A program made the translations under genes and the position numbers. A DNA stretch of 64,000 nt from Candidatus Latescibacterota bacterium (GTDB lineage: Bacteria > Latescibacterota > UBA2968 > UBA8231), in NCBI GenBank assembly GCA_964291625.2, contig OZ220089.1, positions 640,001-704,000 of the forward strand, read 5' to 3'. The stretch's first letter is position 1. The number at the start of each line of letters is the position of its first letter. Under the pieces are notes generated by a model. It was not told the DNA's origin. It worked only from the letters and a program-made list of their open reading frames with translations, and made no database searches. Below are positions 22,286 through 57,888 of this stretch, piece by piece.

Positions 22286-23551
22286 TCAGCTCCAGAGCCG
22301 GTCGCTGGAGGTCTCGGAGTTCCAACCCACGGTGGGCCCGAAGGGCTCCCCCGCCTCCGGATCGGCGAACTCGCGCAGCACCTCCTCGTTCAGGCCCTCG
22401 AAGCCGAGGCCCGGCGTCTCGGGCACGGCGATGTGGCCGTCCTCGATCAGCGGCACGGGCAGGCCCGTCACCAGGCTGCTCCAGCGCTCCAGGTCGTCCA
22501 CCGAGTGGTTCTCGAGGACGAGGAAGTTCTCCGTCGCCGCCGCCGCCTGCACCGAGGCCATGGCCGCCACCGGGCTCATGGCCATGTGCAGGGCCATGGC
22601 GATGCCGGCGTCCTGGGCGGCGTCGCCGATCTTCTTGGTCTCCAGGATGCCGCCCGACGAGGCCAGGTCCGGGTGGGCCACGGCGATGGCGCGGCGGCCG
22701 AAGAGGTCGGCGAAGCCCTCCTTCAAGTAGATGTCCTCGCCGGTGCAGACCGGCGTCTCCACCGACTCCGAGAGCCGCTGGTACTGGTCGGCGAGCTGCC
22801 ACGGGATCATGTCCTCGTACCAGGCGAGGCTGAACTGGTCCAGGGCGCGGCCCAGGCGGATGCACGACTCCAGGCCGAGGTGGCCGAAGTGGTCGGCCGC
22901 CAGGGGCACCTCGTAGCCGGTCTCCTCGCGCACGGCGGCGACGTACTCGCACAGCAGGCCGATCCCCCTCTCGGTGATCTGGATGCCGGTGAAGGGGTGC
23001 ATGACGGTGGTCGACTCCAGCATGCCCGGCGGCGCGATGACGCAGTCGGACCGCCCGCGCAGGGTCCTCAGCCCGATGTCCATCTTGAGGAAGGCGAAGC
23101 CGTCCTCCATGCGCTGCCGCAGGCGGCGGCCCATCTCGCGGCCGTCGTCGACGGTGGGAGTGTCGCAGTAGCACAGGACCTTGTCGCGGAAGCGGCCCCC
23201 CGCCAGTTGGTACGCTGGCACGCCGTAGGCCCGCCCCGCCAGGTCCATGAGGGCCATCTCCACGGCGCAGACGCCGCCGGCCTGGCGGGCGTGGTGGCCG
23301 AACTGCTTGATCCGCCGGAAGAGGCGGTCCACGTCGCAGGGGTTCTGCCCGAGGAGGCGGCTCTTGAGCATGAGGGCGTACGTGGGGCTGCCGCCGTCGC
23401 GGACCTCGCCGTACCCGGAGATCCCCTGGTCGGTGTCGATGCGGATGAGGGTGGAGTGGAACGGCGCCCCCTTGAGGCGGGCGACGCGCAGGTCGGTGAT
23501 CCTCAGGCTCGACGGGCGGGAGGCGGTGTGGACGTTGGCTTCCGGGCTCAC
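22286..23551 (-). CDS. mandelate racemase/muconate lactonizing enzyme family (enolase superfamily)
   Basis: GTG 23551; RIDTDQGISGYGE, EMALMDLAG, FLKMDIG, WYED, TGED, HPDLASSGG. Confidence 0.9.
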   Translation of the reverse strand: MSPEANVHTASRPSSLRITDLRVARLKGAPFHSTLIRIDTDQGISGYGEVRDGGSPTYALMLKSRLLGQNPCDVDRLFRRIKQFGHHARQAGGVCAVEMALMDLAGRAYGVPAYQLAGGRFRDKVLCYCDTPTVDDGREMGRRLRQRMEDGFAFLKMDIGLRTLRGRSDCVIAPPGMLESTTVMHPFTGIQITERGIGLLCEYVAAVREETGYEVPLAADHFGHLGLESCIRLGRALDQFSLAWYEDMIPWQLADQYQRLSESVETPVCTGEDIYLKEGFADLFGRRAIAVAHPDLASSGGILETKKIGDAAQDAGIAMALHMAMSPVAAMASVQAAAATENFLVLENHSVDDLERWSSLVTGLPVPLIEDGHIAVPETPGLGFEGLNEEVLREFADPEAGEPFGPTVGWNSETSSDRLWS

Positions 23552-23787
23552 GTGGGGTTCCTGGCGGGTGTCGGTGAAGAAGAGGCTGGGCGGCGCTTCG
23601 AAGCGGGATAGGGTAGCCGGGGGCCGGGGCGGGCGCAACGCGGAGGGCACGACCACTTGCCGCCCGGCGCGATGCGGGGTTCTCCATCCACCGTTATCTT
23701 TCGCAGGCCTGCCTCCCCTCCCAGGACAGACCCTCTGGCTCGCTCCCCGGCGGGACGGTGACCAGCCTCACAACTGAAGCTCATACC

Positions 23788-25242
23788 ATGGGTTACGTCT
23801 GGACTCCCATCGAAGACTACGAGTCACACGAAGTGCTCGCACACAAGGAGCTCGGCGCCTTGGCCGAGGTCTGGCGAGAACGACGCCAACAGCTGACCAA
23901 TCAGCGGGAGTACCGTGACTTCGAGCAGCGGCTGAAGCGCGAGTGGGCCATCGAGACTGGCTTGATCGAGCGCCTCTACACGCTGGACCGCGGTATCACT
24001 CAACTACTCATCGAGCACGGCATTCAGGCGGCCTTGATCCCCCATGGGAGCGGTGCGAACCCGGAAGCGACCGTGGCCATGATCGAGGATCATGAAGCGG
24101 CGGTCGAAGGTGTGTTCCAGTTCGTGAAAGACCAGCGATCACTGTCCACGAGCTACATCAAGGAACTTCACGCCTTGATGACGCGGCACCAGTATACCGT
24201 GGAAGGTGTCGACCCCCGCGGGAGAAAGACGGAGGTCCCTCTCATCCGCGGCGATTACAAGCGGCTGCCGAACAATCCCAATCGGCCGGACGGCTCGGTC
24301 CATGAGTATTGCCCACCGGAGCAGGTCACCGCCGAGATGGACCGGCTCATCGCCATGCACGAGGCCCACGCCGGCGCCGCTCCCGAGGTGGAGGCGGCCT
24401 GGCTCCACCACCGGTTCACCCAGATCCATCCTTTCCAGGACGGCAACGGACGGATCGCCCGCGCCCTCGCCACCCTGGTGTTCATCAAGGGAGGTTGGTT
24501 CCCGCTCGTGGTCAGGGACCGGGACCGGGCCCGCTACATCGAAGCCTTGGAGCATGCCGATTCCGGCGACCTGAAACCCCTGGTGGGCTACTTCGCGCGC
24601 CTGCAGAAGGACGAGTTCGTCCGGGCTCTCAGCATTGCCGAGGACGTCAGGAGGTCACGCCGCGCCGAGGACGCGATCAGGTCCGTGCGGGAGCGGTTGC
24701 AGGCCCGCAGGGACGCGCTCGTCGCCGAATGGGAGACAGCGAAGTCCATCGCCTCCTCGCTGCGCGACCATGCCCAGGAGCGCCTCAATAGCGTTGCGGA
24801 CGAGTTGGGCCGCGAGATGGGCGATGTGCTGGAGCACGGCTCCTACTTCGCCGATGGCGCGGCCGAGGGTGGGGACAGGAGCCATTACTACCGCTACCAG
24901 ATCATCCAGACCGCAAGGCAGCTCGACTACTTCGCAGGTACCCACACATACCGTTCCTGGGCGCGCTTGGTGATGAGAAACGCCAATCAGACGGAGTTGT
25001 TGATCGCCTTCCACGGAATCGGGCACGAGTTTCAGGGGGTACTCGCATGCTCGGCGACGTGGTTCCAGCGCGTGGAGACGGAGCAGGGCGAGAGGGAGAT
25101 TGGCCCGGTGACACCGCTCTCGGACGACGTATTCCAGATCAACTACAAGGAACCTCACGAGGATGTCGAGGCCAGATTCTCGAACTGGCTGGAAGACGCC
25201 ATCGTCCGTGGTCTCAGTCTGTGGCAGGAGACGTCGTTGTGA
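23788..25242 (+). CDS. Fic family protein (AMPylase motif intact)
   Basis: HPFQDGNGRIAR; N-terminal ETGLIE resembles the inhibitory helix; codon usage less GC-biased than neighbours. Confidence 0.92.
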   Translation: MGYVWTPIEDYESHEVLAHKELGALAEVWRERRQQLTNQREYRDFEQRLKREWAIETGLIERLYTLDRGITQLLIEHGIQAALIPHGSGANPEATVAMIEDHEAAVEGVFQFVKDQRSLSTSYIKELHALMTRHQYTVEGVDPRGRKTEVPLIRGDYKRLPNNPNRPDGSVHEYCPPEQVTAEMDRLIAMHEAHAGAAPEVEAAWLHHRFTQIHPFQDGNGRIARALATLVFIKGGWFPLVVRDRDRARYIEALEHADSGDLKPLVGYFARLQKDEFVRALSIAEDVRRSRRAEDAIRSVRERLQARRDALVAEWETAKSIASSLRDHAQERLNSVADELGREMGDVLEHGSYFADGAAEGGDRSHYYRYQIIQTARQLDYFAGTHTYRSWARLVMRNANQTELLIAFHGIGHEFQGVLACSATWFQRVETEQGEREIGPVTPLSDDVFQINYKEPHEDVEARFSNWLEDAIVRGLSLWQETSL

Positions 25243-25305
25243 CACCGGCGCCCCTTGTCCTGCCGTCGATGATCTGCCCGCTGGTCTCGGGCTGAGCCCA
25301 CCCCA

Positions 25306-25422
25306 CCCGTCTGCCGAGAGGTCCCTCGCGCACCGTCACCGGCAGCCTGCGCGGCCGCAGGATCCCCGTCGGCTCGAGCCGCCAGGGGGACATCGGCGTC
25401 ACCCCGGGGCGCCTGAAGGAGG
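25306..25422 (+). repeat. diverged copy of the rsmD RBS and 5' end (28587..28702)
   Basis: caccgtcaccggcagcctgcgcggccgcaggatccccgtc...gcctgaaggagg aligns with catcgtcaccggcagcctgcgaggccgcaggatccccgtc...gcctgaaggagg; TTG start is TCG in the copy. Confidence 0.92.
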
Positions 25423-25544
25423 AGGCGGTGCGGACCTTGGCTTGCGGGCTCACGCAGGGCTCCTGGGGGGGTGGGACGAGCCCCCCGGGCGGGGCGCTCG
25501 AAGCGGGACAGGGTAGCCGGGGCGAGGGCCCCGCAACGCGGCGG
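25421..25544 (+). repeat. diverged copy of the enolase-superfamily gene 5' end and upstream region (23519..23646)
   Basis: ggaggcggtgcggaccttggcttgcgggctcacg...tcgaagcgggacagggtagccgggg vs ggaggcggtgtggacgttggcttccgggctcacg...tcgaagcgggatagggtagccgggg. Confidence 0.88.
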
Positions 25545-25599
25545 GTCAGGGGGCTGCCGATGTTCCGGCAGAGCGATCCAGGCGTGAAGCTGACCCCGT

Positions 25600-26760
25600 C
25601 TAGAAGTAGGTAGCGGCGCTGAAGAGCAGGGCCGCCCCCCGAACCTCGTTGTTCAGACGATCCCGCGTGCTCTCGCGCTGATAGTCCAGCTTGAAGACCG
25701 AGTCCGGGTGGGGACGGAAATTCAACCCGTACGTCAGGCGGCGCCGGCTGTCCCCCGCGGCGTCGGCGTCGAAGTCGACCCTTCCGTAGCGGAGCACCCC
25801 GGTGCACACCGACTCGGGAAGAGCGGAGAGGATCCCCCGGGCAAAGTGGGCGTTGGCCTGTATGTAGACCCCCGCCTGGCTCTCCTGCAGCAGGGCCATC
25901 TCCGCCGGCACCTCGATCGCGGCCCTCGCGTACTCGCCCAGCAGTTCGAGGCCGCGCCAGGATGCGTCCCAGTCCAGGGCCCAGATCGTCAGCCCGCGAG
26001 CGGTGTCGATGGCCAGACCATCCGCCTCCCACTCGTTGTAGGGACCCGTATGCAGGGATACTCCCAGCTCCCAGGCCGTCCGGGGACTGACGGCGAGGCG
26101 CCCGACCAGGGAAGGGCGATTGTTGTTGTCGGTGAGATTGCCCCTGCCCTCCGGGATCCTCGTGCCGTCTCCGCTGGCTTCTATCACCCCTTCGTCGAAC
26201 CCGTTCACAGCGTAGAGCTCGTAGGTGATCCGGGACGAGGCCCTCGGGTACCAGGCGCCATAGACGCCCATCCCCGCCTCCGACAAGGCCGTCGGGATGA
26301 TCTCGGTGCTGACCAGGGGCCGGTCCGTCAGATCGTTGGCCGGGCTGTCATGTGAGAGATTGAAACGCCCCAGGGGGGAGAGGATGATGCCGCCCCGGAA
26401 GGTCAGGGCCGGATGGAGCTCGAAATCGAGGACCGCGATCTCGAGCTTGATCTCCTCCCCGCCTTCCTCGAACTCGAGCTCCGAGGCCACCCGCAAGCGC
26501 TCGGTTACGGGCGTGTAGGAGAACAGGTTGAAGCGCTCGGCCACGAAGGAGAGTTCCTCGGTGATCCCGTCCTTCCGCCCGTAGCGGAGGTGGACCTCGG
26601 AATAGCCGCCGATGCGGGTCCGGCCCGGCCGGGCGCTCATGAAGGGCTTGTCACCGATCCCTCCCTCGACCAGGGGCCGCTCCTCCGCTGCGGCGCCGTC
26701 GGTCCACCAGAGAATCGCGCAGGCCAGAGAGGGGATCAGGGCCTTGCTGCCGTCGCGCAT
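25600..26760 (-). CDS. outer-membrane beta-barrel/porin-like protein
   Basis: Signal peptide; IGGYSE, SELEFE; alternating beta strands; terminal ATYF. Confidence 0.75.
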   Translation of the reverse strand: MRDGSKALIPSLACAILWWTDGAAAEERPLVEGGIGDKPFMSARPGRTRIGGYSEVHLRYGRKDGITEELSFVAERFNLFSYTPVTERLRVASELEFEEGGEEIKLEIAVLDFELHPALTFRGGIILSPLGRFNLSHDSPANDLTDRPLVSTEIIPTALSEAGMGVYGAWYPRASSRITYELYAVNGFDEGVIEASGDGTRIPEGRGNLTDNNNRPSLVGRLAVSPRTAWELGVSLHTGPYNEWEADGLAIDTARGLTIWALDWDASWRGLELLGEYARAAIEVPAEMALLQESQAGVYIQANAHFARGILSALPESVCTGVLRYGRVDFDADAAGDSRRRLTYGLNFRPHPDSVFKLDYQRESTRDRLNNEVRGAALLFSAATYF

Positions 26761-26766
26761 GTTCCT

Positions 26767-27180
26767 CTATCTCACGGAGGCATGGATGGTTAAGCGATCT
26801 TCGGATACCGCCACCCGGTAGCTGGTGAGCGGCTTCTGGGCCGGCCCGCGCACCACCGCCCCCTGCCGGTCGAAGGTCGAGCCGTGGCAGGGGCAGACCA
26901 GGAACTCTCCCCCCGGCCGCACCTGGCAGCCCAGGTGGCTGCACGTCGTACCCAGGGCCCGCAGCGAACCGTCCTCGAGGCGCAGGAGGGCGATCTCCTC
27001 CACGAGGCCTGAAGCCCGTACCCGCACCGCATTCCCCTCCCCGAAGGTGCTTTCCACTTCGCCCCGATCCAGCTCGATGGCGCCGCCTTCGAGGGTTGCC
27101 AGGTAGGTCGGCAGACCCGCACAGCCGCACAGGCCCACCAGGCCGGCGCCCAGGCGCCCGAGCGCCTGCCGGCGGTCCAT
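26767..27180 (-). CDS. Rieske [2Fe-2S] protein with Tat/lipoprotein-like leader
   Basis: CSHLGC and CPCHGS boxes; MDRRQALG...LCGC N-terminus. Confidence 0.92.
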   Translation of the reverse strand: MDRRQALGRLGAGLVGLCGCAGLPTYLATLEGGAIELDRGEVESTFGEGNAVRVRASGLVEEIALLRLEDGSLRALGTTCSHLGCQVRPGGEFLVCPCHGSTFDRQGAVVRGPAQKPLTSYRVAVSEDRLTIHASVR

Positions 27181-28424
27181 CACAGCGACCTCACAAAGGC
27201 CGCCACGGCCTGCTGCTCACCTGAATCGAGCGCCTCATAGCGCTCTCTCGGCCCTTCGGCCTCTCCGCCGTGCAGGCGAATCGCCTCGTCCACCGAGCGG
27301 GCCCGGCCGTCGTGCAGGTAGAACTCCTCGCCATCGAGAAAGTCGCCGACCAGGCGCGTTCCCCACAGCGGGGCCGTGCGCCATTCGCGGCCCGTGGCGT
27401 CTCCATCCGGCCGGTAGTCGGCCAGGTCTGCTCCCATGTCGTGCAGGAGCAGGTCCGAGTAGAGGTGGACGTCGACCGCGCTGAGCCCGGGTATGGGACC
27501 GGGCCCGGTCCGCATCGCCGGCACGTGGCAGCTGGCACAGCCTATCCGGCCGAACAGTTCCTCGCCGCGCAGCACTGCGGCCGTCTGTGGGCCCCGGGCC
27601 GGCGGCTTGAGCAGCCGCACGTACATGGTCGTTTCCAGAACCGTGGCGGCCGGGACCTCCGGATCGGCCACCCCGTCGCCCAGGGCCACCCCCCCGCCGG
27701 CCTGGGGATGCGTGTTCTCAAGGGGGATGAAGTCGCTGGTGATGCCCATGTCCTGGTGATAGGCCAGCGCCACCTGCTCGATCAGGGAAGAGACCTGGGC
27801 CTTGCGCGAGAAGCGGCCCAACTGGGGCCCGTCGCCGCCCCCGACGTGGTGAGAGGGAACGAAGTCGGGGGGGGTCACCCAGTGCGGGCGCCCCGAGATC
27901 CCGTCTCCGTCCTCGTCGTCCGGGTCGGCGTGGGCCAGGATCGCCGCCGCGGGAATCGCCTCGATGAGCCCTGCCCCGAACACCGGGGGCGGCATGCGGA
28001 AGGATACCTCGACCCCTTCGGGAACCCGCTCGGGGGGAATCCCCGCGATCGCCTTGTCCTGGTGCTGAGGTCCGCCGATATCCACGGCCGGGTCGGTCCC
28101 GCGACTGAAGCGGGTGAACCCCCGGTCCGGCGTGCCCCGGCCATCGCCGGGATGGCACCCCTCGCAGGACACGTTGTTGAAGATCGGGCCCAGGCCCTCG
28201 GCGACGGCAAACGCTTTTTCGAAGTTTTCGTCCCCTGCGACAAAGGCGGCGTTCAGGTCGCGGGACAAACCCTCCGGGGGGGACTCGAAATCGTCGCCCG
28301 CCGTGGGGAGCCGGGTCATCATCGCATCGCATCCCAGCCAGGCCATCCCGAGCAGACCCGCGAGGACGGGCCAGTGGATCGCGGTCGTCGTGCAGACCCT
28401 CTCCGGAAGCCGTATTAGTCTCAT
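27180..28424 (-). CDS. di-heme oxidoreductase (DHOR/DUF1111) family lipoprotein
   Basis: GLGPIFNNVSCEGCH, GCASCH, YSDLLLHDMG, EWRTAPLWG, YLHDGRARS; WLGC lipobox-like; start uncertain. Confidence 0.88.
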   Translation of the reverse strand: MRLIRLPERVCTTTAIHWPVLAGLLGMAWLGCDAMMTRLPTAGDDFESPPEGLSRDLNAAFVAGDENFEKAFAVAEGLGPIFNNVSCEGCHPGDGRGTPDRGFTRFSRGTDPAVDIGGPQHQDKAIAGIPPERVPEGVEVSFRMPPPVFGAGLIEAIPAAAILAHADPDDEDGDGISGRPHWVTPPDFVPSHHVGGGDGPQLGRFSRKAQVSSLIEQVALAYHQDMGITSDFIPLENTHPQAGGGVALGDGVADPEVPAATVLETTMYVRLLKPPARGPQTAAVLRGEELFGRIGCASCHVPAMRTGPGPIPGLSAVDVHLYSDLLLHDMGADLADYRPDGDATGREWRTAPLWGTRLVGDFLDGEEFYLHDGRARSVDEAIRLHGGEAEGPRERYEALDSGEQQAVAAFVRSL

Positions 28425-28435
28425 CTTAAGATTGT

Positions 28436-28451
28436 TTTAGTCAAGGCTAAA
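28436..28451. promoter_or_regulatory. DtxR/MntR-like palindromic operator
   Basis: TTTAG-tcaagg-CTAAA in an AT-rich patch directly upstream of the DHOR gene. Confidence 0.55.
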
Positions 28452-28605
28452 TCAGATTACGGCACAGACCGGCCTGAAGCAAGGGGAAAGATCCTGGCGG
28501 CCCTGACCGGCCCGGCTTCGCCCGCCGGGTCCGCCGTTGCCGGGAGCCCGGAGAAGGCGTTCATTCCCGGAGACCCCTCCCCAGCTCCCGTCCGCCGAGG
28601 ATCCC

Positions 28606-29175
28606 TTGCGCATCGTCACCGGCAGCCTGCGAGGCCGCAGGATCCCCGTCAGCTCGAGCCGCCAGGGGGACATCGGCGTCACCTCGAGCCGCCTGAAGGA
28701 GGCCCTCTTCGACCGCCTCGGTCCGTCCCTGGAGGGGATCGCCTTCCTCGACCTGTGCGCCGGCTCCGGCCAGATCGCCCTGGAGGCGTACAGCCGCGGC
28801 GCCCGGGTGACCGCGGTGGAGCCCGACCGCCGGCGGCGCGAGGCCCTGCGCCGGCTCATGGAGAGCTGGGGCGTCAACCACCTCGAGCTGCTGGGCGGCC
28901 GCGCCCAGACGGTGATGAGGACGCTGGCCGCCGAGGGCCGGCGCTTCGACGTGGTCTACCTCGACCCGCCGTACCGGGCGCTGCACAACGGCCGCCCCCT
29001 GAGCCAGATCCTGCTCGCCGCCGCCGGCCGCTCGGGGATCCTCGCCGGCGGCGGCCGGCTCCTCGTGCAGCACCCGAAGAGCCTGGAGCTGCCCGAGTCC
29101 CCGGAGGGGCTGCGGCGGGTCGACGCCAGGCGGCACGGGACCACCGGGCTGAGCGAGTACCGCCCGGCCTCTTGA
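28606..29175 (+). CDS. rsmD: 16S rRNA m2G966 methyltransferase family
   Basis: TTG after GAGG; MRIVTGSLRGRRI, LKEALF, FLDLCAGSG, YLDPPY. Confidence 0.88.
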   Translation: MRIVTGSLRGRRIPVSSSRQGDIGVTSSRLKEALFDRLGPSLEGIAFLDLCAGSGQIALEAYSRGARVTAVEPDRRRREALRRLMESWGVNHLELLGGRAQTVMRTLAAEGRRFDVVYLDPPYRALHNGRPLSQILLAAAGRSGILAGGGRLLVQHPKSLELPESPEGLRRVDARRHGTTGLSEYRPAS

Positions 29176-30995: not shown

Positions 30996-31050
30996 GGTCC
31001 CCGAAGTGCCGCCGAAGTAGCAATCAGTCCACCGAATGGGAGATGGCCAC

Positions 31051-38989: not shown

Positions 38990-38990
38990 C

Positions 38991-43068: not shown

Positions 43069-43076
43069 CTGGAAGC

Positions 43077-46352: not shown

Positions 46353-46546
46353 GAGGACCGGACCGGAGCGGCGGCGCCTCGAAGGCCCGGCGCATGCACC
46401 CCTGCCCGGTTACGGCAGGCGCCTCGACCCAGGCCTACGAGATCGCCAGGAAGGTCATGCGGCTCCCTCCTCGGACGGAGCCCGAACGCGTCCGACAGAC
46501 CGCCGACCAGACGCGGGGACAGATTCTCGTCAAAGAGGAACTTCAC
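46349..46546 (-). pseudogene. truncated DUF5615 PIN-like toxin
   Basis: MKFLFDENLSPRL matches the family N-terminus; similarity is lost after about 21 residues. Confidence 0.75.
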
Positions 46547-46771
46547 CCGGGCGGGATGGAAACGAGCCTGCGTTCACGCTCCGCCGCGAAGGCGAGGCGC
46601 CGCCCGGATGTCGGCGCGCTCCAAGTCCGGAAAGTCGGCCAGTATCTCCGCTTCCGTCATCCCGGCTGCCAGGTATTCGAGGACATCGTACACCGTGATC
46701 CTGAGCCCGCGAATGCACGGCTTCCCGCCCCTCTTCCCCGGCTCCAGCGTGATGCGATCCAGTCTGCTCAT
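46543..46771 (-). pseudogene. frameshifted DUF433 antitoxin
   Basis: RITLEPGKRGGKPCIRGLRITVYDVLEYLAAGM...DFPDL; expected tail LAFAAERERRLVSIPPG lies in the +1 frame. Confidence 0.8.
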
Positions 46772-46840
46772 GCCTTGTACAATACCCGGTGGCCGAGTCG
46801 AAGGTCAATTGTCGCCGTTCGGCGCTGGGATGGCACGCCC

Positions 46841-46868
46841 ATGTTCGCCGACACGATCCTGTTGGCCT
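46841..46868 (+). repeat. copy of the methyltransferase 3' end (46317..46344)
   Basis: atgttcgccgacacgatcctgttggcct vs atgttcgccgacacgatcctggtggcct (27/28). Confidence 0.85.
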
Positions 46869-46871
46869 CGC

Positions 46872-48206
46872 TCAACCGCCCCCCGTCCACTTGAGATACA
46901 GGTTGACGGCGGTGAAGTTGACGATCGCCCAGAGGCTGGCCAGCAGGCCCAGCTCCAGCCACATCGACATGCGCCGGTCCCGCGCCTCGCGCATGGCCAG
47001 GTGGAGGACGCCGAAGGCCAGGGGGATGAGCAGCAGGTTGTTGGCGTTGGCCCCGAGCAGCACCAGCAGGAAGGGCGTGTCCGACTTCACCAGGATGACG
47101 CACAGCCAGAAGGCCGGGAAGGCCACCTGCAGGGCGCGGGCGACGCGCATGCGTCCGGCCTCGCCGGCGGCGGCGGGCAGCTTCAGGCGCTGCAGGAGGT
47201 CGGCGCCGATCCGTCCCGAGCTGGCGGCGAAGACCAGCAGGGTCGAGAACAGGGTGCAGAAGGCGCCGAACATGAAGACCGCCTTGGCCGCCGGCCCCAG
47301 GGTCTCGGTGAAGATCAGGGAGACCCGGTCGGCCACGTCGATGCCGGCGGGCAGGACCTGCAGCCGCGACAGGACGGAGGCGCCGAGCAGGTAGTAGGCG
47401 CAGGTGATCGCCAGGGCGATCGCCGTGCACACCCCGGCGTCGGTGGCCAGGACCCGCATCCAGCCGCGGTAGCGGGCGCGCCACTCGGGGGTGCCGTCGT
47501 CGGGGCCGACGAAGCGCGGGTAGCCCTTCTCGCGCACCCAGTAGGGATACATGAACAGCTCCACCGCCGTGGCCCCCACCGAGCCCATGACGGCCAGGGC
47601 CACGAAGGCCCCCTCGGCGGGCATCTCGAAGCGGAACCCCGAGGCCAGCTCGGCCGCCGACATGGCGTGGGGGGTGGTCTGCAGCACGATCAGGCAGCCG
47701 ATGACGATGGTGCTGAAGGTCGCCACCAGGACGGTGACCATCTTCTCCAGGTCCTGGTAGAGCCCCCGCCACAGCAACACTGTCAGTACCACGAAGACCA
47801 GCACCGCCCACACCTGGTGGGAGAGGACGGGCAGGACCGTCTGCAACAGGCCGGCCACCGAGCCGAGGATGCCGATGACGGCGATGAAGACCGAGAAGTA
47901 GCCGGCCACGCAGATCCAGGTGGCCAGCGAGACGCCGCCGGGGCGGAACCCGGGGAGCCGGTCGAGGGCGTCGATGGTGGTGTCGTCGTGGAGCAGGCAC
48001 TGGCGGCCCAGCTCCAGCTGGATGAAGAACTTGATGACGCAGGCCAGGATCACTCCCCAGAGGAAGACGAACCCGACCTCGGCGCCCATGCGGGTGGTGA
48101 CCAGCAGCTCGCCGGAGCCGACCACCGAGCCGGAGACCACGACCCCCGGGCCGATGTTGCGCAGCAGGCCCCACAAGCCCCGGGGCGGCGGGCGCCCGGC
48201 GCTCAC
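46872..48206 (-). CDS. Nramp/YcsG-like divalent metal or solute transporter
   Basis: IGPGVVVSGSVVGSGEL, YPYWVREKG, about 11 TM segments. Confidence 0.8.
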   Translation of the reverse strand: MSAGRPPPRGLWGLLRNIGPGVVVSGSVVGSGELLVTTRMGAEVGFVFLWGVILACVIKFFIQLELGRQCLLHDDTTIDALDRLPGFRPGGVSLATWICVAGYFSVFIAVIGILGSVAGLLQTVLPVLSHQVWAVLVFVVLTVLLWRGLYQDLEKMVTVLVATFSTIVIGCLIVLQTTPHAMSAAELASGFRFEMPAEGAFVALAVMGSVGATAVELFMYPYWVREKGYPRFVGPDDGTPEWRARYRGWMRVLATDAGVCTAIALAITCAYYLLGASVLSRLQVLPAGIDVADRVSLIFTETLGPAAKAVFMFGAFCTLFSTLLVFAASSGRIGADLLQRLKLPAAAGEAGRMRVARALQVAFPAFWLCVILVKSDTPFLLVLLGANANNLLLIPLAFGVLHLAMREARDRRMSMWLELGLLASLWAIVNFTAVNLYLKWTGGG

Positions 48207-50460: not shown

Positions 50461-50582
50461 GCTCTTCCCCCAGGTGACGGTGTGGGACGGGTTGCGGCGT
50501 CAAAGGTAGGACATGGCGGAGGGGACCCGCAGGCGCCGCCACCGGGCTCTGCGCCTCCTTGCCGGCGCCTGCGCCCGGGATC

Positions 50583-50864: not shown

Positions 50865-50897
50865 GCCATGACCCACCTCATCCGGAGGACCACGATC

Positions 50898-52769
50898 ATG
50901 TTGCACGCCATGGCGCCCGATCAGCCCCTCCTCCTGCGGACCCGCCTCTCCCTGTGCCTCGTGGCCGCCGCCGGGATGCTCGCACTCGCCGCCCTTCCCG
51001 CCGGCGCGGAGACCCTGCACAAGGGGCCGGGCCTGCTGCTCGAGGACCGCGACGGCCGCATCTACGCCGCGGTCCCCGGTCCGGCGGCCGTGGTCATCCG
51101 GGGCGGCGACGAGGACCGCTGGGAAGTCCTCGCCGAGGGCCGCCTCGGGGGCCTGCAGGTCACCCCCGACGGCGACCTGTGGATGGCCCTCGGGGACGAG
51201 GTCCTCCGCTACCCGCGGGCCGGGGGCGCCCCCGTATCCCGGACGCCGTCCTTCCGTCCGGAGGGGCCGCCGGGGCGGATGCTGGCCACCCGCTGGGGAG
51301 ACGTCTGGTGCGCCGGCTGCGCCGACGTGCGGCTGGGCGACGCCATGTTCCAGGCCGCGCCCCTGGCCCCGCCGGGGTGGGAGGTCACGCCGGTCTGCGA
51401 CGACCCCTTCGGCAACGTCTGGGCCGTGGCCGCGCACGGCGAGCGGCTGGACCTGGCCGTGCTCAGCGACCGGGGCCCCCACGCCTGGCAGCTCCTCGAC
51501 CTGCCCGCCGACCTTCTCGCCGGCCCGTGGTGGGACGCCGCCACCGACGACGCCGGCTTCGTCTGGGCGGCGGTGGACAACTCCCTCGTGCGCGCCGACG
51601 CGCGCTCCGCCGGCCACCGCTCCTTCGCCAATCCCGCCGACTCCCCCATCACCGCCATCGGCCGCGGCGGCGGCCAACTGCTGGTGGGCTTCGCCGACGG
51701 CAGCCTGCGGGAGCTGGTGGTGAACGCCGACGATCCTCCCGAGTGGCGGGACGTGCTGCCGGCCGGGGAGGGTCCGGTGCAGGCCCTGCTCCACGCCGGC
51801 TCCGGCGGTCTGTGGGTGCTCAGGGCGGGAGAGGTCCAGCGCTTCGCCGATCTCGAGAAGCCCTGGCACGAGCACTGGGAGGAACTGCCCTTCATGCCGG
51901 CGGGCAACCACGACAACATCTTCGCCCGCATCGGCGACCGCCTCTACACCGCCGGCGGCAAGACCTTCTTCGGCTGGCCCGCCGACGAGTGGGTCAACCT
52001 CGACCACGTCTGGTCCTACGACATCCCCTCCGGCACCTGGCGCGTGGAGGCGCCCATGCTGGAGCCGGGCAAGGCCTACTCCGGCATCGCCGTCCTCGAT
52101 GACGAGCTGTGGCTCCTGGGGGGCCTCTTCCGCCACGGCGAGGGCGACGCCACGCGGCCCACGGCGACGGTGGAGATCTTCGATCCGGCCACGCAGCGCT
52201 ACCGTCTCGGCCCGCCCCTGCCCCAGAAGGCCGGCCAGGTGGTGGCCCTGAGCACCGGGGGGCGGCTCTACGGCGTCGGCGGCTCCGCCGAGGAAGGCCA
52301 CCTGGCGCAGCTGCTCAGCATCGGCCCCGGGGAGTCGGACTGGCGCGTCGACGCGCCGCCCCCCGGCACGGTCTACCAGGCCAGCGGCTGCGTCCTGAAC
52401 GGCCGGCTCTACATCGCCGCGGGACCGAAGAGCCAGTGTCCCGGCCTGTTCATCTACGACCCCGGGCGAGACGAGTGGAGCGAGGTGGACCACCCGGTCA
52501 AGGCGCCCAATGCCCCCCTGTGCACGGCCTTCGAGAATCGCGTCTGGGTGCTGGGCGGGCGCGCCGACGGGGGCCGCACCGAGAGCTACGCCTACGACCC
52601 GAGCAGCGGCGAGTGGACCCGGGGCCCGGACCTGCCCCTCGAGCTGAGCTGGGCGGCGGCGGCCGACGCCGACGGCCGGCTGCTGATCGCCGGCGGGGCG
52701 TTCTGGGACGACCGCGTCAACGATGTGCTCAACACCGACCGGGTCTTCCTGATGCGGGCGGGCCCGTAG
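50898..52769 (+). CDS. secreted double beta-propeller protein with C-terminal Kelch repeats
   Basis: GGAGG RBS, signal peptide; D..G.VW repeats then Kelch motifs (LYTAGG, LWLLGG, YDP...W). Confidence 0.85.
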   Translation: MLHAMAPDQPLLLRTRLSLCLVAAAGMLALAALPAGAETLHKGPGLLLEDRDGRIYAAVPGPAAVVIRGGDEDRWEVLAEGRLGGLQVTPDGDLWMALGDEVLRYPRAGGAPVSRTPSFRPEGPPGRMLATRWGDVWCAGCADVRLGDAMFQAAPLAPPGWEVTPVCDDPFGNVWAVAAHGERLDLAVLSDRGPHAWQLLDLPADLLAGPWWDAATDDAGFVWAAVDNSLVRADARSAGHRSFANPADSPITAIGRGGGQLLVGFADGSLRELVVNADDPPEWRDVLPAGEGPVQALLHAGSGGLWVLRAGEVQRFADLEKPWHEHWEELPFMPAGNHDNIFARIGDRLYTAGGKTFFGWPADEWVNLDHVWSYDIPSGTWRVEAPMLEPGKAYSGIAVLDDELWLLGGLFRHGEGDATRPTATVEIFDPATQRYRLGPPLPQKAGQVVALSTGGRLYGVGGSAEEGHLAQLLSIGPGESDWRVDAPPPGTVYQASGCVLNGRLYIAAGPKSQCPGLFIYDPGRDEWSEVDHPVKAPNAPLCTAFENRVWVLGGRADGGRTESYAYDPSSGEWTRGPDLPLELSWAAAADADGRLLIAGGAFWDDRVNDVLNTDRVFLMRAGP

Positions 52770-52853: not shown

Positions 52854-54194
52854 TTACTCCCACAGGCGGGGAATCGGAACGGCGTACAGGCCGTCTCCGA
52901 AGGGGACGGTGGTCTCTCCGTCGTACAGCACGACTCCCTGGCGGAAACGGTCGCCCGCGACGCCCCGCAGCTTCCGGAGCCCGTTGAAATCGCTGCGCCT
53001 GACGGTCGCCGATGCCTTGACCTCGACACCGGCGATGGCGTGCGAGCCCTGCTCCATCACGATGTCCACCTCCACTCCATCCCTGTCCCGGAAGTGGGAG
53101 AACTCGACGGGAACGTCCTGCCAGCTGCCCTGCCTCCGCAGTTCCTGGAAGACGAACGTCTCGAGGAGTTGCCCCAGCAGGGAACGATCCGCCGCCAGCT
53201 GCGCGGGACCGAGGCCGAGAAGCGCGGTGGCCAGACCCGTGTCTCCGAGGTGGAGCTTGGGAGTCTTGACCAGACGGCTCAGACGATTGCTGTGCCAGGG
53301 CGGGAGTCTCTCGAGAAGGAACAGGCGTTCGAGAAGCGTGACGTACTCCCCGATCGTGGGACGGCTGAGCTGGAACGGCGCGGCCAGATCGGAGAGGTTG
53401 AAGATCCGGCCCGTCTGCGAGGCGGCAGCGCGCAGGAGTGGCGGGAGGGTCTCGAGCGATCTGATGCGGGCCAGGTCGCGCACGTCGCGTTGAACCAGTG
53501 TCTCGACGTAGTCGCGATACCAGTTGGCCTGTCGCCGAGGGGTGGGCCGCGCCAGCGCCGGCGGGAATCCGCCGGCGACGATGAGCTCTGCCAGTCGCGA
53601 ACCGAGCCTGCGGGTCTGAACGATCTTGAACCCCTCCCCGAACAGGTCGGCTACGAATCCCCTGCCCGGATTCGGTGGGATCACGGAAGACCGCGACGCC
53701 ACTTCGTACCGCGACAGCGGATGGAGTCGGACGATCTGCAGCCGTCCGGCAAGGGACTCGGAGAGGGCCGGCAGGAGCAGGACGTTGGTGGAGCCGGCAA
53801 GGATGAATCGGCCGGGTACCCGGTTCCGGTCGACTTCGAGCTTCAGGGCCGGGAAGAGCTCTGGAACGAGCTGAATCTCGTCCAGGATGACGCGTTCCGG
53901 GAGGCCGGCGACAAACCCGGCGGGGTCCGCTCGAGCGCCGTCCCTCGCGATGGCATCGTCGAAGCTGATGTATCCGTAGTCCCGCTGCTGCCGTGACACT
54001 CCCCAACTCAGCCGTTCCTCCCCCCACAGCAAGTATTCGCCACGCCACGTGAGGTAGTCCGGCGCATAGGCGTACTGGGCGAGTGTCGTCTTGCCGCACT
54101 GGCGCGGGCCGTGGATGAGTACGACCGGCGAGTCCTCCAGGGCCTCGGCGAGGCGGGGCTCGATGAGTCGCGGATAGAAGGTCTGTTCGGACAT
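52854..54194 (-). CDS. AAA_14 ATPase + DUF4143
   Basis: GPRQCGKTT, ILDEIQ, LAGR, GGFP, KTPKLHLGDTG, ETFVFQEL, FRDRDGVEVD...GVEVK. Confidence 0.93.
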   Translation of the reverse strand: MSEQTFYPRLIEPRLAEALEDSPVVLIHGPRQCGKTTLAQYAYAPDYLTWRGEYLLWGEERLSWGVSRQQRDYGYISFDDAIARDGARADPAGFVAGLPERVILDEIQLVPELFPALKLEVDRNRVPGRFILAGSTNVLLLPALSESLAGRLQIVRLHPLSRYEVASRSSVIPPNPGRGFVADLFGEGFKIVQTRRLGSRLAELIVAGGFPPALARPTPRRQANWYRDYVETLVQRDVRDLARIRSLETLPPLLRAAASQTGRIFNLSDLAAPFQLSRPTIGEYVTLLERLFLLERLPPWHSNRLSRLVKTPKLHLGDTGLATALLGLGPAQLAADRSLLGQLLETFVFQELRRQGSWQDVPVEFSHFRDRDGVEVDIVMEQGSHAIAGVEVKASATVRRSDFNGLRKLRGVAGDRFRQGVVLYDGETTVPFGDGLYAVPIPRLWE

Positions 54195-54302: not shown

Positions 54303-54346
54303 AACGGCCTTGCGGGCGGCTGGAACTGGCCCGGGCGTGGTATGCC

Positions 54347-54535
54347 GCCGAACGCTCCCCTGGGCACGGCCTTCGAGGATCGCGTCCGAGTGCTGGGCGG
54401 GCGCGCCGACGGGGGCGCACCGAGAGCTACGCCTACGACCCGGCCAGCGGCGAGTGGGCGCGGGGCCCGGACCTGCCCCTGGAGCTGAGCCGGGCGGCGG
54501 CGGCCGACGCCGACGGCCGGATGCGGGCGGTAGTC
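54347..54535 (+). repeat. diverged, internally deleted copy of the Kelch gene 3' end (52505..52771)
   Basis: gcacggccttcgag.atcgcgtc...gagagctacgcctacgaccc...gccgacgccgacggccgg, then jumps to atgcgggcgg(tag)tc at the original stop. Confidence 0.92.
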
Positions 54536-54897
54536 AGCGCGGCCAGCAGCATGGGCAGGGACCGCAGTTCCCGCTTCAGGGGATCCAGCACGTAGCCCAG
54601 GGCCTCGAGGGTGACCACACCGAGAAGATTGCTGTCGCCGGGTTCGCCGAAGACGACCGGCGCGGCCCCCCGGTGCTCCTTGTAGCGGAACAAAGCGTCG
54701 CCCAGGGGACGTTCGATCTGGTCGCCGTTGGCCAGGGTAAAGGTCCGGCTCGAGTGCGGCTCGATGCCCAGCTCCTCCAGGAGCGTCCGCTGCACTACCG
54801 AGTAGACGGCCCCCGAGTCGATCAGGAACCGCTCGCTGCGGAACTCCTCCGGCCGGGCGGGAGAGGCGATGTCGATAGCGAGATATGTGAGTCCCAC
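54433..54897 (-). CDS. clan AA (retropepsin-like) aspartyl protease
   Basis: GTG after GGAGG; FLIDSGAVYSV, FTLANG, LLGVVTLEALG.VLDP. Confidence 0.88.
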   Translation of the reverse strand: MGLTYLAIDIASPARPEEFRSERFLIDSGAVYSVVQRTLLEELGIEPHSSRTFTLANGDQIERPLGDALFRYKEHRGAAPVVFGEPGDSNLLGVVTLEALGYVLDPLKRELRSLPMLLAALTTARIRPSASAAAARLSSRGRSGPRAHSPLAGS

Positions 54898-54972
54898 GTG
54901 AGAGCCTCCATCACTGGCATCCATGGGCGTCGGGTTTACCTATCTTCGCCTTCGAAGCCGCGAAGTCAAGTC

Positions 54973-55153
54973 CCCGCCAGCGTGGCCTCCATCACGGCAT
55001 CCACCACCGCCCGCAGGGCCTCCTCGGGCGTCGCCCCCGCCTCCAACGCCTCCCGGTAGCAGGCCGCCTGCCTGTGGGAGCTGGTCCCCCGCTCGACGAT
55101 GGTGCTGACGTGCTCCACCTCGGCGAGGCTCCCGAGGTGCTCGGCGTCCTCCC
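54973..55153 (-). repeat. diverged copy of the carboxylate-amine ligase 3' end (56759..56939)
   Basis: Copy encodes EDAEHLGSLAEVEHVSTIVERGTSSHRQAACYREALEAGATPEEALRAVVDAVMEATLAG vs original EDAEHFGCVAEVEHARTIVERGTSSHMQAACYREALAAGATPEEALRAVVDAVMEATLAG. Confidence 0.95.
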
Positions 55154-55246
55154 CGACAAGGCGATTTTCTTTTCGAACGGACAGTACCTGACCGGTTGGC
55201 ACGTAGATTTGCCGGACTTTCTCGCCATTCCCAGAGGAGGGATGCC

Positions 55247-55477
55247 ATGAAGAGGATACTGATGGTCCTGCTGGCCGCCGTGACTATCACCGTAGACGGA
55301 GGCTGTGGTTTCCTGGATCTCAGTCTGAGCAGCGGGTCGGACGGTGGCGGATCGGACGGCAGCGGATCGGACGGCAGCGGGTCGGACGGCGGTGGGTCAG
55401 GCGGTGGGTCAGGTGGCGGCTCGGGCGGCGGGTCGGGCGGCGGCGGCGGGTCGGGCGGCGGCGGCGGGTCGGCCTGA
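55247..55477 (+). CDS. small exported Gly/Ser-rich repeat protein
   Basis: GAGGAGG RBS; MKRILMVLLAAVTI signal-like N-terminus, one Cys, then GSDG[GS] and GGGS repeats. Confidence 0.55.
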   Translation: MKRILMVLLAAVTITVDGGCGFLDLSLSSGSDGGGSDGSGSDGSGSDGGGSGGGSGGGSGGGSGGGGGSGGGGGSA

Positions 55478-55489
55478 GAAGCAACCGGG

Positions 55490-55696
55490 TTGGGTAACTC
55501 CTTCGACTTCGCCTTCCAGACCCGCATCGACAAGGGCCGGATCGACCTGTTGGCCACCTCCGGGTGCGTGCGCCGCAAGGAGGTGGTGCTGCTGTGGGGC
55601 CCCGGGCGTGGGCAGGTCCCGCTCGCGGCCGGACTGGGCGTCAAGAAGGACTGTCGTGTCGCCAAGCAACTCCACACTCGGGTGAAGGTGGCGTAG
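55490..55696 (+). pseudogene. istB: IS21-family IstB helper ATPase fragment
   Basis: FDFAFQTRIDKGRIDLLAT...KEVVLLWGP...LAAGLGVK; Walker A destroyed. Confidence 0.75.
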
Positions 55697-55737
55697 GGGT
55701 AAGCCTCTGGAGACGAGGCGATATGGAGGAGTTGCCC

Positions 55738-56694
55738 GTGCAGCCAGGATCGGTTTGCCATGTCCTTCGATACTCTCGAAGGGTTCTTCTCATCCTCGTA
55801 CTTGCAGCTGTCTCGACGCCTGCTGCTCAACCTGACTCATCGAAGACGCGGCAACAGGAAGTCGATCTCAAGCGCCTGGGCTATACAGGTGCCGGTGCTG
55901 CTGGTCTGCATTGGTACGGCTTCCGGCATCTTGAGAGAAACTGGTGGCAAGGGGAAAAGGTCCCTCTCCGCCTGGTTCACGATTGGTCTGGTGATTCCTA
56001 TCTCAATCTGGACCACGCCAGTCACTTCATGTGGGGGCTCTTTCTCGCGCAAGCCACAGGCGATCTCTACCACTGGATAGGCTTTTCTCAGCGCACCGCA
56101 GCTCTGCTCGGCTCTCTCAGCAGCATAGCCGAGATGTTCTATGTCGAGTACCGCGACGGGAGATATGGTCACTGGGGTTTCAGCACTCCCGATGCCACGG
56201 CCGATGTGCTCGGCGCACTGGTTCCCCTGATCCACGCAAGTATTCCGGCGACTCGAATCGTCCAGTTCAAGCTCAGCTACTTCCCCTCCCCGCTCTTTCG
56301 CTATGGACACGCACGCCAGGCTGATGGACACCCGTATGTCCTCTCGTTCATGGACGACTACGAGGGGATGACGTTCTGGATGGTGATGGACCCCAGGCCC
56401 CTGCTACCGAGGCATGCCGCCGGGCGGTGGCCCGATTGGCTGGGAGTGGCGGTAGGGGTCGGGGCTCAGGGACTGCACGGCTATGGCCGCACAAGCCGCG
56501 GTCCCGACCGCTGGTATCCCGACATGCCGGATGCGCAGCGCGAGATCTACCTCTCGCTGGACTTCGACTTCGCGCATTCGTTGGCCAATTTCGAAGTACT
56601 TCGCAGGTTCACGCCCTACTTCCGTCTCCTCCGCTTTCCCACCCCCGCCCTTCGCATTCACCCCACGCCGACCCTCTACCTGTTCTATTTCTGA
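55738..56694 (+). CDS. YfiM/DUF2279-like exported or outer-membrane protein
   Basis: GTG after GGAGGAG; LNLDHASH, VEYRDG, WGFS, DDYEGMTFW, REIYLSLDFD, terminal F; lower GC. Confidence 0.75.
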   Translation: MQPGSVCHVLRYSRRVLLILVLAAVSTPAAQPDSSKTRQQEVDLKRLGYTGAGAAGLHWYGFRHLERNWWQGEKVPLRLVHDWSGDSYLNLDHASHFMWGLFLAQATGDLYHWIGFSQRTAALLGSLSSIAEMFYVEYRDGRYGHWGFSTPDATADVLGALVPLIHASIPATRIVQFKLSYFPSPLFRYGHARQADGHPYVLSFMDDYEGMTFWMVMDPRPLLPRHAAGRWPDWLGVAVGVGAQGLHGYGRTSRGPDRWYPDMPDAQREIYLSLDFDFAHSLANFEVLRRFTPYFRLLRFPTPALRIHPTPTLYLFYF

Positions 56695-56754
56695 CCGCCG
56701 TGGCTGTTCTCACGCTGGTTGGGGTCGGGCGTCCCTGATGCAGTCGACCCGTCG

Positions 56755-57888
56755 TCAGCCCGCCAGCGTGGCCTCCATCACCGCATCCACCACCGCCCGC
56801 AGGGCCTCCTCGGGCGTCGCCCCCGCCGCCAACGCCTCCCGGTAGCACGCCGCCTGCATGTGGGAGCTGGTCCCCCGCTCGACGATGGTGCGGGCGTGCT
56901 CCACCTCGGCGACGCAGCCGAAGTGCTCGGCGTCCTCCCTCACCAGCTCCAGCAGCTCGTCCATCAGCTGCGGGAAGGGAACGATCTCGCCGCGGCCGAA
57001 GTCGACCATCCCTTCGTCGATGCCGTAGCGCTGGGCCCGCCAGCGGTTCTCGTCGACCAGGGTGCGGGTGTAGATCCGCCAGCGCTGGTTGTCGCGGCGC
57101 AGCCGGTAGAGCATGCGGCAGATGCAGCGGAAGAGGGCGGTGCAGCAGAGGGCGTCCTCCAGGCGGGTGCAGACGTCGGTGACCCGCATCTCGAGGGTGG
57201 GGAAGCGGGCGCTCGGGCGCACGTCCCACCACAGCTTGGTGGCGTCCTCGATCAGGCCCGCCGCGGTCATGAGCTCCACCGTGCGCCGGTACTCGTCGTG
57301 GCTCTCGAAGCGCTCGGGCAGGCCGGTCCGGGGCAGCTCGTCGAAGACGCACAGGCGGTAGGACTGCAGGCCCGTCTCCGTGCCCTCCCAGAAGGGCGAG
57401 GAGGTGCTCAGGGCCAGCAGGTGGGGCAGGAAGTAGGAGACCTGGTTGAGGATGTCGACGCGCAGCTCGTCGTCCTCGAGGCCCACGTGGACGTGCATGC
57501 CGCAGATGAGCAGGCGCTGGGCGACGACCTGCATGTCCTGGTGCAGGATGTTGTAGCGCGGCTTGTCGGTGTGCTTCTGGTCCCGCCAGCGGGCGAAGGG
57601 ATGGGTCGAGGCGGCGATCAGCCCGAGGCCGTGGCCGCCGGCGATCCCGGCCACGGTGCGCCGCAGGTGCTCCAGGTCGGCGCGGATCTCGGCCGTGGAG
57701 TCGCGCACCGGGGTGCCGACCTCGACCTGGGGCCGCAGGAACTCGGGGCTGAAGTGGGCGCCGAGCTCCTGCTCGAAGCGGTCGAGCAGCTCCGCCGGCG
57801 GCTCGCTCACCAGGTCCCGCGTGTTCCGGTCGACGAGGAGGTACTCCTCTTCCACGCCGAGGCTGAAGGTAGGCTCGCGCAGGGCCAT
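56755..57888 (-). CDS. carboxylate-amine ligase (YbdK/GCS2 family)
   Basis: FSLGVEEEYLLVD, ASTHPF, CGMHVHVG, SSPFW, WWDVRPS..FPTLEMRVTD. Confidence 0.95.
   Translation of the reverse strand: MALREPTFSLGVEEEYLLVDRNTRDLVSEPPAELLDRFEQELGAHFSPEFLRPQVEVGTPVRDSTAEIRADLEHLRRTVAGIAGGHGLGLIAASTHPFARWRDQKHTDKPRYNILHQDMQVVAQRLLICGMHVHVGLEDDELRVDILNQVSYFLPHLLALSTSSPFWEGTETGLQSYRLCVFDELPRTGLPERFESHDEYRRTVELMTAAGLIEDATKLWWDVRPSARFPTLEMRVTDVCTRLEDALCCTALFRCICRMLYRLRRDNQRWRIYTRTLVDENRWRAQRYGIDEGMVDFGRGEIVPFPQLMDELLELVREDAEHFGCVAEVEHARTIVERGTSSHMQAACYREALAAGATPEEALRAVVDAVMEATLAG

Follow-up and report, generated by a model that had tools for sequence, protein, structure and literature searches.

Accessory genes stacked between eroded copies of their flanking genes at hotspots of a Candidatus Latescibacterota chromosome

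Introduction

Fewer than half of the hotspots for horizontal gene transfer encode an integrase, and a double crossover in their flanks swaps the content only (PMC5635113). In Escherichia coli, linear DNA was ligated into circles that integrated by a single crossover; 56 of 60 clones carried a duplicated homologous arm, which measured 109-950 bp in 14 sequenced recombinants (PMC3240628). Restriction-modification genes have also been described as insertions with long target duplications and no integrase (PMC2853133). Here, we analyze a stretch of 64,000 nucleotides from a Candidatus Latescibacterota bacterium (assembly GCA_964291625.2, contig OZ220089.1, positions 640,001 to 704,000; hereafter the window), in which cargo genes are separated by diverged copies of the ends of neighboring genes. 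An original prediction, made from the sequence alone, had read this layout as cargo added by homology-facilitated recombination into integron-like arrays. Our analysis suggests that whole alternative alleles of a hotspot were probably stacked head-to-tail and then eroded. Sponges are a habitat of this lineage. A paper describing its sponge-associated members does not use the words "recombination" or "competence" in the part of its text quoted here (PMC12993501).

Same-orientation copies beside cargo genes

Self-BLASTn of the window recovered the five copies at three loci (A to C) that the original prediction had claimed. All five pairs lie near accessory genes in the same orientation, with copies of 28-181 bp and 77-96% identity (Table 1). 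The count was made with the CRISPR array removed and covered matches of at least 45 bits between same-orientation partners at most 10 kb apart; it returned seven matches, the five pairs and two between tandem peptidase S58 paralogues (18.5-20.2 kb, in the paralogue tract 18072-20181), which were dropped. Under the same cut-offs, no inverted match was present in the window outside the array, and none of 24 Markov-simulated sequences gave such a match. A more sensitive self-comparison of the window (1/-1 scoring) chiefly returned GC-rich noise. Most of the copies are gene termini, as had been proposed; the 23519 segment is mainly promoter (33 bp coding), the kelch copy k' is longer than first described, reaching 54533, and a sixth copy (d', locus D) had been overlooked. 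Four of the five copies (125-188 bp) form repeats longer than 30 bp around an insert of less than 20 kb, the spacings being 524-3,278 bp.

The absence of an integrase, a tRNA site and an intact transposase from the window was likewise borne out. Pfam searches of 55 open reading frames (ORFs) and 96 gap reading frames found no integrase or recombinase in the window, and neither the tRNA search nor the Rfam search of the window gave a match. No intact transposase with terminal inverted repeats and a short target duplication was found in the window; the mobile-element traces were one IS21 IstB fragment (55478-55693, E 1.6e-5) and, within the Fic protein, a DDE match that fell below the cutoff. 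No inverted repeat brackets cargo among the longest inverted pairs listed, and no 6-8-mer was common to the 42 copy ends above random background. Fifteen further gaps, compared with their own flanks, gave no convincing match, the best one (p 0.035) being to a kelch position far away. Copies were found in 4 of 5 variable intervals and at 0 of 7 conserved adjacencies (Fisher p 0.01, from a small and partly circular sample in which bases 1-28,000 had no relatives for comparison), agreeing with the excess beside accessory genes that had been proposed as a check. GC content at third codon positions (GC3) is 0.60-0.91 in cargo and 0.90-0.98 in flank genes. Among the 14 window proteins scanned with PADLOC, several cargo proteins matched models, mostly of candidate systems, and none matched a restriction-modification model.

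At locus A, the order is enolase-family gene, a, Fic gene, b'/a', a three-gene di-haem oxidoreductase (DHOR)/Rieske cluster, b and rsmD. The two copies b' and a' abut directly, with GGAGGC at the break in both originals and an exact overlap of 2 bp, and the TTG start codon of rsmD has become TCG in b'. Because these two repeats cross and abut directly, one att core cannot yield locus A. Both junctions with rsmD exist separately in relatives: the Fic gene stands directly before an intact rsmD at one locus (L003), and the DHOR gene stands before rsmD at another (L001). Copy b' has the Fic-rsmD spacer and two non-synonymous states (sites 28684/28687) in common only with the Fic-linked rsmD of L003; these L003-type states reach to within 15-18 bp of the seam, and a tree of the copy segments groups b' with L003 at 60% support. 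In this kelch-centered scan, the L003 and L001 loci end short of the enolase gene, leaving a and a' without a counterpart among the fetched loci.

Locus C runs from kelch through AAA-DUF4143, k', a clan AA protease gene, y' and cargo Z to ybdK. The stop codon of k' overlaps the protease end in the form found at the kelch-protease junction of L004 and L002, and in L004 the protease gene directly adjoins an intact kelch gene.

Table 1. Features of loci A to D and of the CRISPR-Cas block; identities of copies to their originals are from self-BLASTn.
Locus	Feature	Position	Strand	Basis and remarks
A	Enolase/mandelate racemase-family gene, left flank	22286..23551	-	Pfam MR_MLE; GC3 0.98; start GTG 23551 inferred
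A	Original a: first 11 codons of enolase-family gene and promoter	23519-23647	-	Sequence
A	Fic-domain protein, cargo X	23788..25242	+	Pfam; PADLOC SoFic and PDC-S04 models
A	Fic-rsmD spacer and copy b' (25294-25422)	25243..25422	+	b' = rsmD upstream region and first ~32 codons; 88.6% to b, E 7e-41
A	Copy a' of enolase-family promoter and 5' end	25421..25545	-	76.9% to 23519-23647, E 1e-17
A	Cargo Y: DHOR, Rieske protein, 386-aa protein	25600..28424	-	Pfam; 386-aa protein without Pfam match, porin-like by eye
A	rsmD, right flank, start TTG 28606; original b = 28572-28702	28572..29175	+	Pfam
	Type I-G CRISPR-Cas (cas7g, csb2, cas3g, extension protein, cas4, cas1, cas2) and array	31036-43070		Largest accessory block
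B	Class I S-adenosylmethionine methyltransferase; original m = 46317-46344	45615..46352	+	Pfam
B	Decayed DUF433/DUF5615 toxin-antitoxin-type pair, cargo	46349..46840	-	Pfam
B	Copy m' of methyltransferase 3' end, adjoining Nramp stop	46841..46868	+	28 bp, 96.4%, E 4.5e-5
B	Nramp-family transporter, right flank	46872..48206	-	
C	Kelch-repeat protein, left flank; original of k' = 52504-52769	50898..52769	+	Pfam
C	AAA_14 and DUF4143 ATPase, cargo	52854..54194	-	Pfam; PADLOC candidate PDC-S01
C	Copy k' of kelch 3' end	54346..54533	+	-1 frameshift, 72-bp internal deletion, kelch stop kept; 52504-52683 to 54346-54524, 91.7%
C	Clan AA aspartic protease-like gene, cargo	54433..54924	-	Pfam; likely start 54897
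C	Copy y' of ybdK 3' end including stop	54966..55153	-	54973-55153 to y, 94.5%
C	Cargo Z: Gly/Ser-rich small protein with lipoprotein-like N-terminus (55247-55477), IS21 IstB fragment (55478-55693), DUF2279 protein (55723-56694)	55247..56694	+	
C	ybdK/GCS2 carboxylate-amine ligase, right flank; original y = 56759-56939	56755..57888	-	Pfam
D	Copy d': 5' part of enolase-family dehydratase, frameshifted, deletion-eroded	60004..60418	+	Comparison with relatives
D	Cargo: low-GC (53-54%) GNAT-domain and ASCH proteins, after d'	60704..63237	+	PADLOC candidates PDC-M11A/B

Stacks at the same loci in relatives

The kelch alignment covered 42 loci from GTDB genomes, mostly Candidatus Latescibacterota. 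All of these loci are centered on one kelch hotspot, so the counts below are not genome-wide rates. Five of them are close (L001, L002, L003, L004 and L036; protein identity 86-93%). Gene pieces were present in all five close loci, with differing breakpoints, and in 4 of 26 sister-clade loci.

Downstream of kelch, the six genomes all differ. In L004, this region consists of the protease gene, a DNA methylase gene and ybdK, with no copies, and in L003 of the AAA gene, k' (offsets 1043-1077 and 1650-1881), the protease gene and ybdK. In L001, two AAA remnants, a ybdK remnant and cargo Z are followed by a kelch remnant, an intact AAA gene, ybdK offsets 546-650 joined to kelch offsets 1338 to the end, the protease gene and ybdK; AAA remnants beside an intact AAA gene mean that duplicated cargo exists. 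L002 holds 29 bp of the protease gene, new cargo, two FGase fragments joined to a kelch fragment, and the AAA gene, the FGase gene itself being situated beyond ybdK. In L036, an outer-membrane protein gene is followed by 48-56 bp of the kelch end, a protease remnant and an IS91-like fragment. A seam between far and near flank, that is, a right-flank piece joined to a left-flank piece between two cargoes, was found three times: at locus A of the window (rsmD 5' end to enolase 5' end), in L001 (ybdK to kelch) and in L002 (FGase to kelch). All three seams keep the resident allele with both of its inner flanks, with no coupled loss of recipient DNA. Both stacking orders occur, AAA before protease in the window, L001 and L003, and protease remnant before AAA in L002. 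The kelch copies begin at six different offsets (1043, 1251, 1338, 1619, 1671 and 1823) in five genomes.

Self-comparison of the five close loci (95,122 bp) gave 20 matches at E<1e-3, every one in the same orientation. Thirteen were gene pieces, and the other seven (three tandem units, three insertion sequence (IS) copies and one paralogue-like match) were dropped. Among the 26 sister-clade loci (525,716 bp), copies were judged present in L018 (69 bp), L019, L040 (77 bp) and L038 (36 bp); those of L019 form three colinear pieces spanning 2,345 bp, and in L038 both partners are remnants. The sister-clade matches set aside were an 852/855-bp repeat in seven loci (translated only in L008, as an ABC-type ATPase), weak matches, paralogue-like matches in L008 and L020, an attC-like pair in L009, and inverted matches in L007, L020 and L022.

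Three of the fetched loci contain further repeats. The pair in L009 (2980-3018 and 3765-3843) surrounds a single gene and resembles, by eye, an integron attC-type palindrome. L036 has three partial IS91-like (Y2_Tnp) copies (9382-10004, 12517-13344 and 17373-18384) surrounding its kelch gene, where synteny has been lost. L032, from Kiritimatiellia, carries same-orientation duplicates of 52-265 bp (3224-3486/5337-5595, 7914-8011/9738-9835 and 2990-3041/6575-6626), which possibly represent the same pattern outside the Latescibacterota lineage.

Divergence and erosion of the copies

Over 150 codons, copies and originals differ by 9 synonymous and 23 non-synonymous changes (pS 0.077, pN 0.069), and the resulting pN/pS of 0.89 does not depart from neutrality (binomial p 0.84). 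The corresponding ratios between orthologues are 0.27, 0.28 and 0.39 (Fisher p versus the copies 0.056, 0.030 and 0.109). The 36 differences at b, k and y comprise 21 private to the copy, 7 private to the original and 8 mixed. Decay therefore dominates the divergence, given the near-neutral pN/pS and the mostly copy-private differences. Donor-strain alleles, to which the original prediction had partly attributed the divergence, were disfavored by this test as a general cause and left a signal at the rsmD copy b' only.

Where a copy survives in several pieces, these are colinear (7/7) and span 112-2,345 bp, the longer spans reaching 839 and 2,345 bp; the short copies are therefore deletion remnants of longer duplications, and the 30-190 bp once taken as the unit of insertion are leftovers. 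They are neither att sites nor fixed-length ends. Judging from their position, the surviving parts may shield the stops and promoters of cargo, as the protease stop sits within the kelch end.

Other features of the loci

At locus B, m' is 28 bp long in the window and 32 bp in L001, and it is present in L004 without its original. The methyltransferase gene has a cargo-like GC3 (0.87) and is truncated in L004 and is, on these grounds, not clearly a core gene. The DUF433/DUF5615 pair has what reads as its own promoter-like TTGACC-N17-TATTGT, and its toxin gene is internally deleted relative to L003.

Two further remnants at locus C are weak, post hoc candidates, a 20-bp ybdK piece at 54904-54923 (p~0.006) and a 27-bp kelch-end piece at 56726-56752 (p 0.014-0.27). 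Within the AAA-DUF4143 gene, ~25 codons (53979-54053) are inserted in frame that are missing in L003. A second AAA-DUF4143 gene (43577-44761) has a homologue (77-79%) just after kelch in many sister-clade loci, and only its promoter region is kept in L003. A palindrome (GGACAG-N3-CTGWCC) next to an A/T tract occurs in the window (55176-55196), L001 (12059), L002 (6637) and L036 (12360). Because it sits in the promoter region of three small cargo genes unrelated to each other and is missing from the other seams, it was rejected as a recombination site and is probably an operator or promoter element of these genes. The phyH-kelch spacer contains degenerate tandem units of ~135-164 bp (window 50461-50885), which are expanded in L003 (9427-9839).

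In L001, L003 and L004, an intact dehydratase gene is located after a GHL10-like gene, which in the window begins at 63635; the intact original of d' is therefore expected beyond base 64,000 and probably lies there. The GNAT/ASCH cargo of locus D is absent from these three loci, and the middle part of its GNAT-domain protein is PIN-like by eye. At the same site, L004 has a 114-bp repeat (93.8%) around the GHL10-like gene.

The CRISPR-Cas block is also absent from L001, L003 and L004. Its array holds ~50 copies of a 37-bp repeat and is degenerate at the distal end, and none of 46 spacers matched the window or the 42 loci.

Elsewhere in the window, four PhyH-family dioxygenase genes (Pfam) lie within the 64 kb (20320-21183, 29208-30065, 48479-49282 and 49438-50460). 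An AT-rich near-palindrome (28425-28460) upstream of the DHOR/Rieske cluster resembles a metal-repressor box.

Origin of the stacks

The far/near seams, the separate rsmD-side junctions in relatives and the occurrence of both orders led us to favor, with a probability of about 80%, a model in which whole alternative alleles of a hotspot were stacked head-to-tail by some housekeeping route and then eroded. Each locus would be a variable interval between stable genes a and b, with cargo differing by lineage, and an incoming a-X-b would be added beside the resident a-Y-b rather than exchanged for it, giving a-X-b'/a'-Y-b. Two joints are needed for this layout, one of them homologous and the other not, and the proposal that cargo moves together with parts of the genes beside it and enters through two such joints stands. 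For the route itself, we think it an even matter whether a donor fragment was circularized by end-joining and integrated by one homologous crossover. A linear chromosomal fragment from a relative, reaching from inside a to inside b, would be end-joined into a circle, creating the b'/a' seam, and a single RecA-type crossover, in one flank or the other, would integrate the circle. From then on, the inner halves of both flanking genes would be non-functional, would decay neutrally and would be trimmed by deletions, so that remnants persist only beside a cargo stop, promoter or ribosome-binding site as the 28-190 bp copies; further rounds would build stacks of two or three tiers. The donor origin, the circular intermediate, the RecA dependence, the transfer route and the reason why ends persist are all parts of the scheme that we infer. 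We rank the circle route first because it predicts a far/near seam, duplication of both flanks and either order, as found.

Two other routes would leave an identical end product. One-sided homology-facilitated illegitimate recombination, as originally predicted, would anchor the donor in one flank, join its other end by microhomology and push the resident cargo along. It accounts for m', k' and y', which copy one flank, and has been proposed for type VI secretion system (T6SS) immunity and rhs arrays (PMC5361080). The 3-10 bp of microhomology expected at its illegitimate joint could be the purine-rich GGAGGC where b' and a' meet at locus A and, close to the seam of L001, CCCAGAAGG, although exact overlap amounts to only ~2 bp and these motifs lie near two seams that are possibly secondary deletions. 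This process usually deletes about as much DNA as it inserts, and it made up 4 of 60 events in E. coli (PMC3240628); keeping both inner flanks demands that the illegitimate joint fall back inside the anchor. We therefore consider it unlikely: one homologous and one illegitimate joint are retained from the prediction, but the classic form inserts with a deletion and the circle route fits the two-flank seams better. Alternatively, the locus could have been duplicated in tandem by unequal exchange at b/a microhomology, after which a donor allele replaced one cargo by double crossover and erosion followed. This gives the same a-X-b'/a'-Y-b product and suits the duplicated AAA cargo of L001 and the cargo-free tandem units of the phyH-kelch spacer. 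Tandem duplications triggered by transformation are known (PMC3784515), and double crossovers at flanking core genes have been proposed for hotspots (PMC5635113). However, two events per tier are required, b' is of L003 type to within 15-18 bp of the seam, and duplicated gene ends were absent from all the conserved adjacencies, making this course distinctly unlikely.

Cargo could also have been moved, along with adjoining chromosomal DNA, by insertion sequences (IS91-type rolling circle, IS21) that worked in trans or have disappeared in the meantime. Y2_Tnp fragments do lie beside the L036 stack and an IstB fragment within cargo Z, and the AAA family is common on plasmids (44-46% identity in 10 listed of 375 records). 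Still, the cargo lacks bracketing terminal repeats among the longest inverted pairs listed and a common end motif, no IS sequence was seen at seams in the window or in L001, L002 and L003, and transposition leaves the return to the orthologous site unexplained; we regard this origin as improbable. In textbooks, site-specific integrative elements are recognized by displaced gene ends next to their cargo, and this counts for elements that inserted into gene ends, brought a replacement end and later lost their integrases, as does the similarity of the k to k' and y' to y spans (1,842 and 1,786 bp). Against them, breakpoints differ in every genome, the locus A repeats cross instead of nesting, copying extends to both flanks, to the FGase gene one place further out and even to cargo genes, and the window has no integrase or tRNA, with locus C giving no match to phage genomes; such elements are very improbable here. 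A strain-chimeric assembly joining two alleles, named in the original prediction as one outcome that would overturn it, is scarcely credible. The relatives are metagenome-assembled and a run of N lies in the L002 seam region, but the copies have diverged by 5-23% and carry frameshifts and internal deletions, and the records behind L018, L019 and L040 have "chromosome: 1" in their titles. Independent assemblies share seams (y' to Z with L001, m' with L001 and L004), which makes an artefact unlikely.

Several observations weigh against stacking by circles. Neither a circular intermediate nor a donor was observed, and the two nearest rivals, as said, converge on one product. Three of the five window copies (m', k' and y') show one flank only, the far/near seam there being deduced from relatives. 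Erosion of the seams may have removed the original joints. The allele signal consists of two sites and a spacer at a single copy, the k' and y' trees being unresolved. The relatives are other species (88-96% nucleotide identity), at loci picked around one hotspot. The DNA methylase cargo of L004 has no detected copies, and the IS91-like and IstB fragments count here as well. Finally, the 12.5-kb CRISPR-Cas block (31.0-43.1 kb) has no significant flank copy, a hisA-end copy on its far side not being found (p 0.83), and the phyH-kelch spacer has tandem units without cargo; the pattern, predicted to be window-wide, is therefore common but not universal.

The findings suggest that chromosomes can gather extra genes without a dedicated insertion enzyme. 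The far/near seam is a searchable trace of the additive route whose decay dates events, and if common it would let the growth of hotspots and defence islands be tested directly. For annotation, short pseudogene ends beside cargo should be read as stacking remnants and not as att sites or misassemblies. Tentatively, additive stacking by end-joining and single crossover might even be this lineage's main accessory-gene route and the seam a general signature of growing mobile-element-free hotspots, a generalization we hold to be doubtful. If it were true, most variable intervals would, without any mobile element, become arrays of defence and surface genes that have many tiers and can be reshuffled.

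Comparison with known systems

The insertions with long target duplication of restriction-modification genes (PMC2853133) are alike in placing cargo between variable-length direct repeats of more than 30 bp, often across start or stop codons, with no mobile-element genes; many of those cases are in competent species. Since such integrase-free duplications have been published, the predicted contrast with short att cores is less new. Their simple form is seen in L004 (the repeat around the GHL10-like gene) and L040. In contrast to that system, the cargo here is not restriction-modification (the lone DNA methylase of L004 has no flanking copy), remnants are eroded, both flanks are copied in far/near order, and there are several tiers in variable order. 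Unlike the form with a single empty site, loci A and C copy two different flanks, and no empty site was found for either. Circularization with a single crossover in E. coli (PMC3240628) likewise duplicates an arm around foreign DNA without an integrase and is recA-dependent there; it was obtained with laboratory plasmid constructs at ~4e-9 per recipient, whereas the events here are deduced from natural chromosomal hotspots.

The displacement arrays of T6SS immunity genes and rhs orphan modules (PMC5361080) also grow by successive additions at one site without an integrase, keep displaced gene ends and are explicitly compared to integrons. Those arrays hold effector-immunity modules behind one conserved gene, in contrast to the unrelated cargo, housekeeping flanks and copies from both sides found here. 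Mobile-element-free hotspots (PMC5635113) resemble our loci in their variable cargo between conserved flanks, the lack of an integrase and several alleles per site; in that model the allele is swapped and no copies are left, whereas here alleles accumulate. Merodiploids made by transformation (PMC3784515) are among the closest known systems.

Integrons and att-site elements share the cassette-like arrays and defence-type cargo (Fic, AAA-DUF4143, GNAT/ASCH, toxin-antitoxin), and the window differs in having no IntI or other integrase, no attC or att consensus and no fixed breakpoint. The predicted term "integron-like" thus applies loosely: copy ends share no site, and cassette order varies between genomes. 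Word searches of the literature, which missed subscription papers and hence are no sign that the layout is unpublished, did not find this exact layout, nor a report for this lineage. Compared with the systems above, the new part is that hotspot alleles appear to have been stacked head-to-tail several times over, with seams that erode.

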